Shown one piece after another: positions 47,585 through 52,165 of a DNA stretch of 64,000 nucleotides. How positions within the stretch are numbered: the first letter of the stretch is position 1; each line of letters opens with the position of its first letter. This stretch comes from Escherichia coli (GTDB lineage: Bacteria; Pseudomonadota; Gammaproteobacteria; Enterobacterales; Enterobacteriaceae). The stretch lies in assembly GCF_044324785.1 (NCBI RefSeq), contig NZ_CP172127.1; one strand, 5' to 3'. The notes under the pieces are model-generated. The model did not search any database and was not told where the DNA came from. It saw only the letters and a program-made list of their open reading frames with translations. The translations under genes and the position numbers were made by a program.

Positions 47585-48877
47585 TTACCTGTTTTCCCAT
47601 AATCTCAGCATCGCTTTGTGCTCGTCTGTCAGCACAATCTGCGGGCGTCTGGCTCGAATATAGCTAATCGCTTCATTAACGGTTTTACAGTGTCCGTAAC
47701 ATAACAACCATGCCGCCACCACCAGCGCACTGCGCGATAATCCCAATGCACAATGGACCAGAACGCTGCCTTGCTCTTCGCGTAATGTTTCCAGCATCGC
47801 CACGGCCTTTCGGAGCTCCCCCTCTTCCGGAACCACCAGATCCAGCATCGGTACACAAAAATAGAGTCGATCTTTTGTGGCTCGTCCGCGAGGGAATTCA
47901 AAGGTGACGTCCAGAACCGCATTCTGTGCCGGAATATGTCGTGGAAACGCCCCTAAATAAACACCAGCCGTAATTTTGCTTACCGGCTCCAGGCGAAGGC
48001 AAAACCAACGCATAGACAGCCACATCCCGATGCGCCATGGCAATGTCAGCCAGTAAACGGCGGGCGGGAGTTTCCCTTGACTATCTTTACCTGTTGTTAT
48101 CGCGCCAAGCCCACCGTACCCACGGCCAATAATGAGTAGCGATAATACTGGCCAACATAACCAGACTGACCACCATAACTGAAGCATTATCATTAGCTCC
48201 ATCAACACAATGCACGAGCCCGCTCCTACGACATATGGCAGTGCTATTTTGATTCGACGTTGATCAGGTTTCTGATAATTCCAACGACGGTCGACGGGCA
48301 CCATCCAGTCAATTAACATACCTACCGCCAGCCCTGTGATGACATCAATAAAATGATGCTGCCAGGTCGTCAGCGTCGAAATGGCGATGAGTAAAAACCA
48401 TCCGCCGCAGACTTTACGCCACCTCACAGCCAGATGCTGACGAAAGTGACGCCAAAGTAGCCAGCAGAGAATAATATGCAGCGAAGGAGACTGGTTATAA
48501 GGCAGATCAAACAATTCAAGTTGCGAAAATAACCATCCTGTCACCCCACTCACTTCAGGACGGATAAAACTAAACTTCAGCGGATAGAGAAAAAAACCGC
48601 AGCAGGCCATTACCGTTGCCAGAATAAGCCGGTGGACCAGACGGCGCTGCTCAAATGTCGAGCTACAAACGAACAGCGAAAATCCATATAAAAGATCCAG
48701 ACTCCAGTAAGGAACAATAGTCCAGGGAAGAAAAGGGATCGCCGTTTCCCAACCGAATACCTGACTGGGGATATCATGGTTGTTAAGATCCTGAGTCGCG
48801 GTGAACTGATTAAGAAATCCATAGGTGAAGAAGAAAAACGGGGCCAGCAACAATAACCAGCCAGCTCCTTGTAGCAA
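47585..48877 (-). CDS. ynbD: Membrane phosphatase YnbD (N-terminal membrane domain plus C-terminal dual-specificity phosphatase)
   Basis: C-terminal HCALGLSRS (CX5R phosphatase motif). Start is uncertain: a TTG at 48877 would give about 430 aa, while the track ORF extends to 48982 and would overlap ynbC. Confidence 0.75.
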
Positions 48878-48890
48878 TACGTTCCGGCGT

Positions 48891-50648
48891 TCAGTTATCA
48901 CGACGCACCGCCATCGAAACCGTAAAAATACCCCACTCATCAATCCGTTGTGTGCATTTATCGAATCCAGCATCATGCACAAGCGAATCCATCTCCCCTT
49001 GCGAACGCACGCGCATCACCCACGGTTTACCATCTTTATGACTGGTTAACACCCCGGCAATCAGTTCCAGTTGTGGGTGCCATGGCTGCCCGGTGTAGAT
49101 GAGAATGCCACCCGGTTCGATGGCATTGGCAAGACCTGCGAGGGAGTTTTTTACCTGCTCATTTTCGGGAAAAAGCTCATACAGTCCAGAGACAATCGCC
49201 AGCGTAGGCCGCGGAGTTAACGCGCTGAGTTCCTCCGGGTTAAACGCATCGCCCTGTTCATAACGCACCCGACCAGACATTCCCCGTTGGGCAATCATCT
49301 CTTGCCCCTGTGCAACATTTAACTCACTGTAATCACGTAACAAAATATCGCATACGGCAGGTTCATACTCCAGCGCATCCAGTACATAGCGCCCATGCCC
49401 TGCGGCAATGTCAACCACGCGGATGGCTAAACCTTTAGCGTGGAGATCGGCAACGGCTTGTTTAATCAGCATTTGTAAATGGGTTTTGCGCTGGCGAATA
49501 CCGCGCCAGCCAACACTGTTCAGGTAGATTTTGTCGATTAAGCGCCCGAATGCGTTACTGCCTTGTGGTTGATTTTGATAGACATAATCCAGCGAACTGC
49601 CTGAATCAAAGCCGGTGCTCATTCCGAGATGCAGGCCCGCAGAGTGCGCCCCGAACAGTTTCATCGCCTTTCGCATAAAGCGATACGCCAAATCAACCGG
49701 CGATAACGGCACGGGTCCACCAGAAAGGAGCCGCCATCGATCCGCTGATGGTCCTGTGCGGTCTTCATGCTGATAATCAAATTTTTGCGACTTGTTAGCA
49801 TATAAGCGACTAATAAAGCTTTGCATTTTTTCAAATGCCTGCGCCCTGTTCTCTTCACCCAACGTGTCGTGATAAAAGCCTGGCAGCAGATGCAGCTCTT
49901 TCAGAGGGCTACGTAATCTCTGATAAAAATCAATCTGCGGTTGGCGATGCACCACATAGTCATCGCCTGATATCAGAAGTTGCGTGGGGAGCGTAATCGC
50001 CGCCGCATCGCTAACAATACGTTCAGACGTTTTATAGAGATCGAGCAAGATATTGACGGCAATCGCCCGTGTGATCAGCGGATCATTATTGAAACTCGCC
50101 ACCCGTTGCCGATCGTGGGTCAGATAACGCCCTTTCACATAGGAATTAATAAAAAACAGACCACGCAGACGATGCCATAACGCCAGCCCAGGACGTGCCA
50201 GCGGCACATACAATTTAACCTTAAAGGCCGGAGAAGCCAGCAGTAGTCCGCGAATAGCAGGCGCATAATCATGAACCCATGTGGCAACCAGCACTGCGCC
50301 GACGCTTTGCGCGATCACAACCACCTCTTCCAGTCCGACCTGGCTGTCGCTGGCAGCAAAACGGACAAATTCATCGACATCCTGCACTGAACGCGCAAGA
50401 GATGGGCTATAACCACGCGGCCCTGACGTTTTTCCATGCCCTCGGGCATCCCAGGCATAAAAAGCAGTATCTGGCATTGTCAGTTCATCAACGATATGTT
50501 GTAGACGACCAGAATGTTCATGGCCACGATGAAATAAGACGATGACCTTTTTCACCCCTGGCTGTAAAGCGGGCCAGCGCCGATAAAACAACGCTGTATT
50601 ATCACTGGTGGTAAAAAAATGTTCCCCAGGGATGCGTGAATTTTCCAT
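48891..50648 (-). CDS. ynbC: Bifunctional alpha/beta-hydrolase (lysophospholipase-like) and SAM-methyltransferase protein
   Basis: 585-aa ORF with GxSxG-type motif (AQSVGA) in the N-terminal half and a SAM-binding-like [11 protein letters not shown] in the C-terminal half. Confidence 0.85.
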
Positions 50649-50663
50649 TTACTCTATTTTCCT

Positions 50664-51560
50664 TCAGTAACAGCAGTAGCGAATAAAATAAAAAAATACC
50701 GGAGCGGTGAAAATTAATGAGTCAATCCTGTCAAGGAGTCCGCCATGTCCTGGTAATAGTTTTCCGCTATCTTTAACACCAACATCTCGTTTGATGGCTG
50801 ACATCACTACATCGCCGCAAAAACCACTAATACCAATTAACAAACCCGCTAATAATGCCTGTAATGTATCTAGCGGTGTCAGCAACGGTCCAATAATCAG
50901 TGACGCAATCATGGTGGTGATTACGCCGCCCATCAGACCTTCCAATGTTTTTCCCGGGCTGACTTTAGGGACCACTTTTCTTCTGCCGCAGGATTTTCCC
51001 CATAAATACTGTGCAATATCGTTTGACTCGGTTAATGCCAAAAGAAATAACACCAGTAACGCCCCGCCCTGGATATTTGTGGTTGGCAACATTAATAACC
51101 AGGCGGCATGACTCAAGGTGAAAACGGTCATTATCCAGCCACAAAAAATGGCACTCACGGTATGCAGAAAACCAGAGGGGTCACCCACTAAAACTCGCCA
51201 GGTGGCTAATATCAGAAACCCAGCCAAAGGTATAAATAACAGAAACAGCTCAAAGCAATTAAAACCGATAAGCAAATAGTTAAGAGGAATACCCCAATAT
51301 AACCAACGCGGAAAATGTACAGATATAAGCGTACAATATTCTTTCAATGCCAGAAAACTTATCAGCGCAAAAAACGTCAATGTCATCCAGCGTGGACCTG
51401 AAATCACCATTGAAAAACAAATGACGATGCCCCACCAGGTACGAATACGTAATGTAACTTCATCCCCTTTTCTCTCCGGTAACCGCCATACTAGAAAACG
51501 GTTTATCAGCGTTGCTAAAATTAACAACGCGAAAAGTGTTGCCAGAGATTTTTCCAGCAT
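50664..51560 (-). CDS. ynbB: CDP-diglyceride synthase (CdsA) paralogue
   Basis: 298-aa multi-TM ORF with cytidylyltransferase-like C-terminal region. Confidence 0.85.
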   Translation of the reverse strand: MLEKSLATLFALLILATLINRFLVWRLPERKGDEVTLRIRTWWGIVICFSMVISGPRWMTLTFFALISFLALKEYCTLISVHFPRWLYWGIPLNYLLIGFNCFELFLLFIPLAGFLILATWRVLVGDPSGFLHTVSAIFCGWIMTVFTLSHAAWLLMLPTTNIQGGALLVLFLLALTESNDIAQYLWGKSCGRRKVVPKVSPGKTLEGLMGGVITTMIASLIIGPLLTPLDTLQALLAGLLIGISGFCGDVVMSAIKRDVGVKDSGKLLPGHGGLLDRIDSLIFTAPVFFYFIRYCCY

Positions 51561-52165
51561 TATCTTTCAGCGCTCATAAGAAGCACACTCCGACAACGAT
51601 TAATCGCAGTCCAGAGAAGCAGAATTGAAGCAATGCTCCATAAAAGATTATTCCATTGCATCCATTGTGGATAAATGGCAATGGCCAGCCCCCACAGACC
51701 AAATATTAACGCGCGATCGCTTTTGCCAAATGGACCGACATAACTACAAATACCGTTAATCGTCTGCGCGAGTAAACCGCAAAACTCGGTCAATATGGTG
51801 CAAAATAACATGAGTATCACGAGTGATGCATTACTTTCAGGTAAAAATAAAAACGGTAAATAGAGCGCAATATCGGAAATAACATCGCCAGTCTCATTCA
51901 AAATCGCCCCAAGACGTGTTTGCTGATTGCACTCGCGCGCCAACATGCCATCCAGCGCATTGAGTGCCATACGAATAAAAAGCACGATGGGCAATAGCAA
52001 AAAGAGGATGGGTTGTGCGACCAACATCAACAGCAATCCGGTAAAAAGAGAAAGCGCCAGTGCAGCAAGAGTGATGTGATTCGCTGTAACATGGTGCTTA
52101 TAAAGCCAAAACATCGTCGGCCTTAACAGCGACTGAAAGAGCGGTTTTATCTGGTAGAGCGTCAT
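51560..52165 (-). CDS. ynbA: CDP-alcohol phosphatidyltransferase-family membrane protein
   Basis: Motif DGMLAREC…GAILNETGDVISD fits the D-G-x2-A-R…G-x3-D-x3-D signature. The track ORF extends two codons upstream, to 52171. Confidence 0.85.
   Translation of the reverse strand: MTLYQIKPLFQSLLRPTMFWLYKHHVTANHITLAALALSLFTGLLLMLVAQPILFLLLPIVLFIRMALNALDGMLARECNQQTRLGAILNETGDVISDIALYLPFLFLPESNASLVILMLFCTILTEFCGLLAQTINGICSYVGPFGKSDRALIFGLWGLAIAIYPQWMQWNNLLWSIASILLLWTAINRCRSVLLMSAER

Follow-up and report, generated by a model that had tools for sequence, protein, structure and literature searches.

The ynbABCD operon of Escherichia coli may be a remnant of a conserved accessory glycerophospholipid pathway of six genes

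Escherichia coli K-12 carries a four-gene operon, ynbABCD, of evident lipid enzymes whose product is still to be named. What might these four enzymes make together, and is enough of the system left in E. coli to make it? An initial annotation of a 64,000-nucleotide stretch of E. coli DNA (hereafter the window) read the operon as leading to a phospholipid or head-group modification that is unknown and perhaps methylated, and as having no assigned product. The first part of this proposal is still the best reading of the locus, with the qualification that a role for ynbB had already been published; the second part is outdated for this gene, which encodes a published CDP-diacylglycerol (CDP-DAG) synthase paralogue feeding the glycolipid MPIase. 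In the literature that we searched, no function assignment was found for YnbA, YnbC or YnbD.

The operon occupies positions 47585-52165 of the window on the minus strand, as four intact, closely spaced open reading frames (Table 1). The tight packing and the 1-bp overlap of ynbA and ynbB noted previously are both real: the final base of the ynbA stop codon is the first base of ynbB, with 15 nt between ynbB and ynbC and 13 nt between ynbC and ynbD. An alternative GTG start for ynbD at 48900 would give a 438-residue product and an overlap with ynbC, and RefSeq uses both the TTG and the GTG start, depending on the strain. As thousands of E. coli genomes have these four genes annotated in RefSeq on the matching stretch, the four-gene call is not a product of chance. 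K-12 does carry the operon, as stated in the initial annotation, but the window itself comes from a different E. coli strain, in which the operon is 96.8% identical to MG1655 and the flanks about 97%. The GC content is 42-45% at the ynbA-ynbB end versus approximately 50% for ynbC and ynbD; horizontal acquisition was considered, and this lower value is suggestive of it.

Table 1. Positions of the ynb genes, their domains and the flanking elements in the window
Feature	Position	Strand	Description
ynbA	51560-52165	(-)	ORF, 201 aa counted from ATG
ynbB	50664-51560	(-)	ORF, 298 aa
ynbC	48891-50648	(-)	ORF, 585 aa
ynbC N-terminal domain, residues 32-266	49851-50555	(-)	PF12146 Hydrolase_4, E 1.5e-66
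ynbC C-terminal domain, residues 275-582	48903-49826	(-)	PF12147 Methyltransf_20, E 1e-150
ynbD	47585-48877	(-)	ORF, 430 aa from TTG
ynbD N-terminal membrane domain, residues ~1-262	48092-48877	(-)	Eight predicted helices, PAP2_3-type
ynbD C-terminal domain, residues 299-430 and stop codon	47585-47983	(-)	Predicted dual-specificity Cys-based phosphatase
ydbD-ynbA intergenic region, with the ynbA promoter inside	52166-52335	(-)	Sequence reading
Perfect 11-bp inverted repeat GATGTGGACTG/CAGTCCACATC, 8-nt loop	47546-47575		Direct sequence reading

Repression by H-NS is a frequent assumption for ynbA, which we do not claim here. The ynbA promoter (PynbA) has been mapped as a target that BglJ-RcsB activates, with a wwTTCykA core motif (PMC3950696), and TATTCTGA at 52250-52257 fits this core, a tentative assignment made by motif match only. 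Expression of the E. coli operon is conditional, depending on BglJ-RcsB and, in the case of ynbB, occurring in the cold. At the other end, ynbD and azoR converge, with the inverted repeat between their stop codons. The repeat is not followed by a T-run on either strand, and the terminator scan made no call there; consensus promoter and terminator scans gave site counts no higher than in shuffled sequence.

Profile searches with HMMER upheld all the domain assignments made earlier. YnbA is a member of the CDP-alcohol phosphatidyltransferase family (PF01066, residues 27-173, E 6.4e-9), whose signature, D1xxD2GxxAR...GxxxD3xxxD4, contains four Asp that act in metal binding or catalysis. The corresponding YnbA motif reads N69xxD72GxxAR77E...G86xxxN90ExxD94xxxD98, with Asn at D1 and D3. 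The motif is invariant and both Asn are present in 100% of 81 YnbA family members, whereas both positions are Asp in the PIP synthase aligned with it. With two of the four signature Asp absent, the chemistry of YnbA may therefore differ from classical phosphatidyl transfer. The best NCBIfam matches of YnbA, to archaetidylinositol-phosphate synthase (78.2 bits, cutoff 180), PIP synthase (47 bits, cutoff 170) and PgsA (29 bits, cutoff 109), all score below the equivalog cutoffs, and its top PDB match is the mycobacterial PIP synthase 6h53 (E 2e-6). Three invariant basic residues of the family, R140 (conserved in 99% of members), K148 and R151, align with R144 and the ERPER segment of that enzyme, residues that bind the acceptor phosphate in PIP synthase. 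YnbB is likewise confirmed as a CdsA paralogue, matching PF01148 across residues 37-295 (E 9e-69), with the motifs of the C-terminal catalytic half kept across 64 YnbB homologues. Against the CdsA equivalog model (NCBIfam PRK11624) it reaches 111.5 bits, under the cutoff of 385, and aligns over residues 161-291 only.

YnbC is indeed a hydrolase-methyltransferase fusion. Its N-terminal domain, which conserves the triad Ser115 (AQSVG), Asp230 and His260, matches monoacylglycerol lipases in the PDB both by sequence (1e-14) and by Foldseek (E 1e-19, TM 0.85-0.90), and reads as an alpha/beta hydrolase of the monoacylglycerol-lipase/lysophospholipase type, closest to the monoacylglycerol lipases. 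The C-terminal domain is a class I SAM methyltransferase in which the glycine-rich SAM-binding motif I (D413-x-A415-x-G417) is conserved, as are D439, GDAF and D467 downstream of it. Methyltransf_20 is a small family (864 representatives among 1.84e9 clusters), and neither profile-to-PDB search nor Foldseek returned a characterised relative, the matches being 3ocj, an unannotated structural-genomics protein, and generic class I methyltransferases that give no clue to the substrate. Literature searches found nothing on PF12147/Methyltransf_20 or on the four-enzyme combination, and the distant YnbC homologues sit on short metagenome contigs that yielded little gene context.

YnbD had been described as a membrane phosphatase with a CX5R motif. 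This holds for its C-terminal part, which has the P-loop HC376ALGLSR382S, the general-acid Asp346 and the DSP fold of PF00782 (DSPc match, 3e-27), but not for the protein as a single module, since conserved residues point to a second catalytic module in the membrane domain. This domain gives a weak match to PAP2_3 (PF14378, 2.7e-4), and its invariant H134, H174-H175 and D178 correspond to the catalytic His of C2 and the His...Asp of C3 in that family. In the high-confidence AF2 model it is structurally nearest to SMSr and Aur1, ahead of PAP2 hydrolases such as PgpB. Because crude hydropathy did not resolve the topology, the orientation was taken from helix order and counting in the AF2 model together with analogy, and would place the PAP2 active site at the periplasmic face and the DSP domain in the cytoplasm.

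The genomic-context comparison that the initial annotation had recommended revealed a conserved linkage. A genome scan with a 9-sequence alignment showed that ynbA-ynbC-ynbD stay together as a core in at least 559 species; most loci have, in addition, ynbB, a PlsC-like acyltransferase and a small conserved membrane ORF with no Pfam match. Among the 71 species-level loci with sufficient flank, YnbA is adjoined by YnbC in 70, by YnbD in 68, and by YnbB and the acyltransferase in 59 each. The gene orders A-C-D-small-Acyl-B and A-B-Acyl-C-D-small recur, YnbA and YnbC occur as Rosetta-stone fusion proteins (P0132 and P0196), and the catalytic residues of every domain are kept across the family. The E. 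coli operon is without the acyltransferase and the small ORF, and a search of the window for remnants of either returned noise only (E >= 0.28). Reduced versions can evidently persist, since Morganellaceae keep only three or four of the genes, A-C-D(-small), and have neither ynbB nor the acyltransferase. The A-C-D core, the six-gene cluster, the Asn-containing YnbA motif, the YnbA-YnbC fusions and the SMS/Aur1-like YnbD domain are new here; the initial annotation did not include the incompleteness of the six-gene set, the PAP2_3 domain, the non-canonical YnbA motif or the frequent loss of the operon in E. coli.

Taken together, these data lead us to favour, at a probability of roughly 55%, a model in which ynbABCD is what E. 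coli retains of a conserved accessory glycerophospholipid pathway of six genes. This is best read as a self-contained CDP-DAG branch in which a phospho-head group would be built, dephosphorylated, modified and possibly transferred. In complete clusters the acyltransferase would supply phosphatidic acid, for which E. coli would draw on the bulk pool; YnbB then converts phosphatidic acid and CTP to CDP-DAG, the step shown in the literature. YnbA, with its altered metal site, would transfer the phosphatidyl group in the way of PIP synthase and PgsA, to an acceptor that is anionic and probably phosphorylated, and the predicted cytoplasmic Cys-phosphatase domain of YnbD would strip the terminal phosphate in the manner of PTPMT1, PgpA or PIP phosphatase. 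YnbC, cytoplasmic and fused to YnbA in some organisms, could deacylate the lipid and methylate it SAM-dependently, and the periplasm-facing PAP2_3 domain of YnbD may finally cleave or transfer the phospho-head group of the flipped lipid. The order of these last three steps is suggested by helix counting and analogy. The acceptor cannot be named, since a product has yet to be detected and the cluster has no gene for head-group synthesis, that for inositol-phosphate synthase included.

How much of this pathway still operates in E. coli is a separate matter. The operon has a dN/dS of 0.19 in this species compared with 0.02-0.04 for hrpA and azoR; about 15% of complete genomes do not have it, and in about 6% more it is truncated or interrupted by an IS, through several independent lesions (about 21% altogether). 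It is under relaxed selection, dispensable and eroding. In the window, the alleles YnbA R140C, YnbB W140C and YnbC F463Y hit positions at which 95-99% of the family agree and, because two of six genes are missing besides, the pathway may be non-functional in this strain. Together with the clean loss of the acyltransferase and small ORF and the normal growth of ynbB knockouts (PMC6362211), these features would fit an operon that is, in this strain especially, a decaying cryptic remnant from which YnbB alone is occasionally useful as a CDP-DAG synthase. We consider this unlikely, given that the window and about 79% of genomes have the four ORFs intact, that dN/dS is far under 1, that reduced versions persist in Morganellaceae and that the promoter is specifically regulated (PMC3950696).

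The only demonstrated output of the E. coli operon is the contribution of YnbB, through CDP-DAG/GlcNAc-PP-DAG, to MPIase. YnbB overproduction increases MPIase, and YnbB and yeast Tam41 together rescue a cdsA knockout (PMC6362211; reviews PMC7018664, PMC11413397); YnbB is reported not to complement the knockout (PMC6362211). Both ynbB and MPIase are induced in the cold, and compound I is made from phosphatidic acid, CTP and GlcNAc-P in membrane vesicles (PMC6362211, PMC11413397). As the later MPIase enzymes are still without names in the literature, the whole operon might serve MPIase biosynthesis, with YnbA rather than CdsA/YnbB coupling CDP-DAG and GlcNAc-1-phosphate to GlcNAc-PP-DAG and with YnbC and YnbD trimming or regulating; the less acidic YnbA site (N69, N90) could suit a dianionic phosphate nucleophile. 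This seems quite improbable for an operon that has no glycosyltransferase and belongs to a cluster that is widespread in Pseudomonas and Betaproteobacteria, with A-C-D as its conserved core and ynbB as an accessory. Moreover, the operon is missing from the genomes noted above despite the reported essentiality of MPIase; a ynbB knockout shows no significant MPIase change (PMC6362211), and the authors of the compound I work ascribe its synthesis to CdsA/YnbB. In the literature searched, an MPIase role is supported for YnbB only, with none reported for ynbA, ynbC or ynbD. YnbB is now called "dedicated to MPIase"; comparative genomics would instead make it the CDP-DAG supplier of a wider pathway.

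We also entertain, with considerable doubt, the idea that the cluster builds a dedicated donor phospholipid in the cytoplasmic leaflet by way of the CDP-alcohol transferase subfamily with the Asn-containing metal site, possibly through a pyrophosphate linkage (e.g. GlcNAc-PP-DAG). Once this lipid had been dephosphorylated, deacylated and methylated, the periplasm-facing, sphingomyelin-synthase-like domain of YnbD would transfer its phospho-head group onto an envelope acceptor; if true, Gamma- and Betaproteobacteria would widely share a system for envelope modification or lipid anchoring that has not been described before. That the CX5R domain of YnbD is a membrane-signalling protein (Tyr/Ser/Thr) phosphatase, in an operon mixing lipid enzymes with a regulator, is very unlikely. 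In favour of this reading, and against the lipid-phosphatase step of the preferred model, protein DUSPs and archaeal PTPs are the nearest neighbours of the domain in sequence and structure, and its P-loop, an ordinary DUSP one, lacks the additional basic residues seen in PTEN and PTPMT1. By structure the domain is equally near PTPMT1 and protein DUSPs.

For the favoured accessory phospholipid pathway, study in K-12 may have been unrewarding, the E. coli copy being short of two of six genes, conditionally expressed and eroding; the lipid is better sought with the full clusters of Citrobacter, Hafnia, Pseudomonas, Variovorax and Cupriavidus. Two oddities are particularly worth testing, namely the Asn-for-Asp subfamily of CDP-alcohol transferases and the predicted union, in YnbD, of a cytoplasmic Cys-phosphatase with a periplasm-facing SMS/Aur1-like domain.

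Among known systems, the phosphatidylglycerol branch (PlsC-CdsA-PgsA-PgpA/B/C; Tam41/CDS-PGS1-PTPMT1) shares with ynb an acyltransferase, a CDP-DAG synthase, a phosphatidyltransferase and a phosphatase. The latter is either PAP2-type (PgpB) or a Cys-based DSP (PTPMT1), and YnbD has both folds. In contrast to that branch, YnbA falls far under the PgsA cutoff and lacks two signature Asp, the PAP2 domain of YnbD is nearer to transferases than to PgpB, and the ynb cluster adds the lipase-methyltransferase fusion and a small ORF of no recognised family. The nearest characterised relatives of YnbA are the PIP and archaetidylinositol-phosphate synthases of mycobacteria, archaea and Bacteroides, whose systems use a phosphorylated acceptor that is then dephosphorylated by a dedicated phosphatase; YnbA differs in scoring under their cutoffs, and its cluster in having no inositol-phosphate synthase gene.

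The membrane domain of YnbD resembles PAP2-type head-group transferases (sphingomyelin synthase/SMSr, Aur1), at a sequence identity of only 12-14%, but is joined to a cytoplasmic DSP phosphatase; we know of no ceramide or other acceptor in E. coli for such a transfer. With the MPIase first-step enzymes of the Nishiyama laboratory, YnbB shares the catalytic C-terminal half of CdsA, synthesises CDP-DAG in vitro and contributes to GlcNAc-PP-DAG/MPIase formation; it cannot substitute for CdsA in bulk phospholipid synthesis, and in other bacteria its partner within the ynb cluster is a PlsC-like acyltransferase. Lastly, the N-terminal domain of YnbC has the fold and Ser-Asp-His triad of monoacylglycerol lipases such as human MGL and M. 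tuberculosis Rv0183 and of Hydrolase_4 lysophospholipases such as B. subtilis YtpA, but differs from them in being rigidly joined (pTM 0.94) to a Methyltransf_20 SAM methyltransferase.

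The ynbABCD operon is real and was correctly annotated. Its four intact ORFs occupy 47585-52171 on the minus strand of the window, and where E. coli genomes in RefSeq align with this DNA they carry annotations for the same four genes. This confirms the tight packing described in the initial annotation, including the 1-bp overlap, as ynbB begins on the final base of the ynbA stop codon. Upstream, ydbD ends 170 nt before ynbA, and GC at the ynbA-ynbB end of the operon is 42-45%. At the other end azoR is convergent with ynbD and the two stop codons are separated by an inverted repeat, at which a T-run is absent on both strands and a terminator scan made no call. 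The start of ynbD is inconsistent in RefSeq: in N3, the E. coli strain that matches the operon best, it is a TTG 13 nt after ynbC (430 aa), and in MG1655 a GTG giving 438 aa and an 11-nt overlap with ynbC. In Snodgrassella and Vibrio the ynbC/ynbD overlap is 4 nt.

Coordinates of the ynb genes, neighbouring features, related loci and YnbD helices
Feature	Sequence	Position	Strand	Remarks
ynbA	window	51560-52165	-	201 aa, counted from ATG
ynbB	window	50664-51560	-	298 aa
ynbC	window	48891-50648	-	585 aa; 15-nt spacer to ynbB
ynbD	window	47585-48877	-	430 aa from TTG; 438 aa if GTG at 48900, overlapping ynbC
ynbD start region	window	48875-48900		
Inverted repeat	window	47546-47575		perfect, 11 bp, 8-nt loop
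Candidate BglJ-RcsB core-motif match	window	52250-52257		8 nt, upstream of ynbA
ydbD	window	52336-54648		annotated as DUF2773-domain bactofilin; AT-rich, GC 40-46%
Small membrane ORF	L051/L083	about 13030-13540		
Small membrane ORF	L011/L012	about 13020-13430		
YnbA-YnbC fusion (variant cluster)	L005	6970-9753		
TM6	YnbD	176-192		AF2 model
Basic loop	YnbD	193-205		AF2 model
TM7	YnbD	206-231		AF2 model
TM8	YnbD	235-261		AF2 model

All four initial enzyme-family assignments hold, since Pfam and NCBIfam profiles (the HMMER check originally proposed) and solved-structure matches back them. In Pfam, YnbA matched PF01066 (E 6e-9), YnbB PF01148 (E 9e-69), YnbC both PF12146 Hydrolase_4 (E 1.5e-66) and PF12147 Methyltransf_20 (E 1e-150), and YnbD DSPc (E 3e-27) with a weak PAP2_3 match (E 2.7e-4). 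The NCBIfam ranking for YnbA placed archaetidylinositol-phosphate synthase (78 bits) above PIP synthase (47) and PgsA (29), with YnbA under the equivalog cutoffs for all three. Among solved structures, YnbA matched mycobacterial PIP synthase, the N-terminal half of YnbC matched monoacylglycerol lipases, and the YnbD C-terminus matched DUSPs and archaeal PTPs. AF2 models of YnbD (pLDDT 93.6, pTM 0.90) and YnbC (pLDDT 95.5, pTM 0.94) were of high confidence; the YnbC hydrolase domain structure matched monoacylglycerol lipases specifically (E 1e-19, TM 0.85-0.90), and no transmembrane segment was found in YnbC.

Judging from conserved catalytic residues, the domains look active across the ynb family, with YnbA as the exception. 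Kept throughout are the AQSVG serine, D230, H260 and the SAM motif DIAAGHGRY of YnbC, as well as H134, H174/H175 and D178 of the YnbD PAP2 domain and D346, C376 and R382 of its DSP domain; HX4D and FPEG are likewise preserved in the cluster acyltransferase. YnbA carries N69xxD72GxxAR77E...G86xxxN90ExxD94xxxD98 in 81/81 family members, so that the first and third Asp of the canonical DxxDGxxAR...GxxxDxxxD motif are replaced by Asn; in the alignment, PIP synthase retains the two Asp. YnbA R140, K148 and R151 show little or no variation and fall opposite R144 and the ERPER segment of PIP synthase, the loop in which that enzyme binds the acceptor phosphate.

YnbD had been described as a CX5R membrane phosphatase. 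This is accurate for its DSP domain, but a second, membrane-embedded catalytic module was overlooked. Counting helices backward from the cytoplasmic DSP domain in the AF2 model, the His/His-Asp site of the PAP2 domain is predicted where TM4 and TM6 reach the periplasmic face, and the two sites would therefore lie on opposite membrane faces.

Methyltransf_20 is a small family: a search of 1.84 billion cluster representatives gave 864 members at E ≤ 1e-3, mostly hydrolase fusions of ~550-600 aa; no paper on PF12147 was found in our literature search. Scanning one genome per species gave at least 559 YnbC relatives, and those listed fall in Enterobacterales, Morganellaceae, Neisseriales, many Betaproteobacteria and Pseudomonas, as well as a Bradyrhizobium and an Acidobacteria MAG. 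Eighty retrieved loci were searched with the window's proteins, and neighbours were counted in the 71 with sufficient flank: YnbA stood beside YnbC in 70 and YnbD in 68, while YnbB and a PlsC-like acyltransferase (PF01553) were present in 59 each. The order A-C-D-Acyl-B (letters for ynbA-D, Acyl for the acyltransferase) occurred in 40 loci, where the gap after ynbD often holds a conserved membrane ORF of ~150 aa, in all Pseudomonas loci among others. A-B-Acyl-C-D(-small), where small denotes this ORF, is the Citrobacter/Hafnia/Snodgrassella type (14 loci), and A-C-D-small is mostly found in Morganellaceae (8 loci). Most non-E. coli clusters have such an ORF (~135-150 aa) 3' of ynbD, for which no Pfam family was found. 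The E. coli A-B-C-D order is without acyltransferase and small ORF, and a search of the window for remnants of either found none.

Natural YnbA-YnbC fusion proteins exist (P0132, 807 aa; P0196, 927 aa). In the variant cluster L005 such a fusion adjoins a CdsA-like gene, a patatin-like phospholipase and an SDR, and a 592-aa PAP2_3 protein lacking a detectable DSP domain is also encoded. A single E. coli record (P0001, 889 aa) joins YnbB (1-298) to YnbC (305-889), likely through loss of the ynbB stop codon and read-through of the 15-nt spacer.

The best-supported reading is that the ynb cluster forms a self-contained CDP-DAG branch. The acyltransferase would supply phosphatidic acid, which YnbB converts to CDP-DAG; YnbA would then form a phosphorylated phosphatidyl-X, to be dephosphorylated by the YnbD DSP domain. 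YnbC could deacylate and methylate the product, and the PAP2_3 domain of YnbD may cleave or transfer the head group on the periplasmic side. The lipid or head-group pathway proposed initially is supported in part. Of these steps, that of YnbB alone has experimental proof.

Compatible with this model, the operon may well be a decaying remnant in this particular strain. The window DNA is E. coli, but not K-12: the operon is 96.8% identical to MG1655 and 98.3% to its best match, N3, and the flanking genes are ~97% identical to K-12. Against K-12, pooled dN/dS of the operon is 0.19, compared with 0.04 for azoR and ~0.02 for hrpA; ydbD (3' 1.3 kb) is more relaxed than the ynb genes, at ~0.35. The window alleles YnbA R140C, YnbB W140C and YnbC F463Y alter positions conserved in 99%, 95% and 99% of the respective families, at which K-12 has the consensus residue, and they may represent incipient loss of function. 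Among 5426 complete E. coli genomes, 4622 matched the operon at all and 4280 had ≥80% of it, leaving ~15% without a match and ~6% with partial copies. Independent lesions (genome matches H38-H40; loci L092, L093) include an IS1 interrupting ynbC, loss of an internal segment between ynbA and ynbC, and a deletion that extends from ynbD across ydbD to within pdxI. Plasmid-labelled records account for five of the operon matches. Decay reaches beyond E. coli, as the second copy in Citrobacter sp. Cu233 (L024) is visibly degraded and Phytobacter massiliensis (L019) has a shortened A-B-C version.

A less likely alternative places the operon in the pathway of the glycolipid MPIase, the GlcNAc-PP-DAG route. 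YnbB makes CDP-DAG in vitro and its overproduction raises MPIase; it cannot replace CdsA in bulk phospholipid synthesis, together with yeast Tam41 it rescues a cdsA knockout, and a ynbB knockout grows normally without significant change in MPIase level (PMC6362211; review PMC7018664). The earlier statement that the operon has no assigned product is therefore outdated for ynbB, but stands for ynbA, ynbC and ynbD, for which our literature search found no paper giving a function. According to a 2024 review, ynbB is cold-induced and the later MPIase enzymes are still unknown (PMC11413397). Tn-seq scored ynbB conditionally in a strain making only phosphoglyceride-linked ECA (PMC8609368), and a ynbC transposon mutant accumulates polyphosphate, a stress effect in the authors' reading (PMC2435150). 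The ynbA promoter is a BglJ-RcsB target mapped by mutation (PMC3950696). The MPIase pathway appeals for YnbA because the reduced acidity of its active site could favor a phosphate as nucleophile. Three observations agree poorly with it: E. coli can dispense with the operon and carries it patchily, many bacteria other than enterics have the cluster, and ynbB is an accessory rather than a core gene.

The CDP-DAG branch that we favor is of the same kind as known CDP-DAG-dependent head-group synthesis, but its enzymology is unusual.
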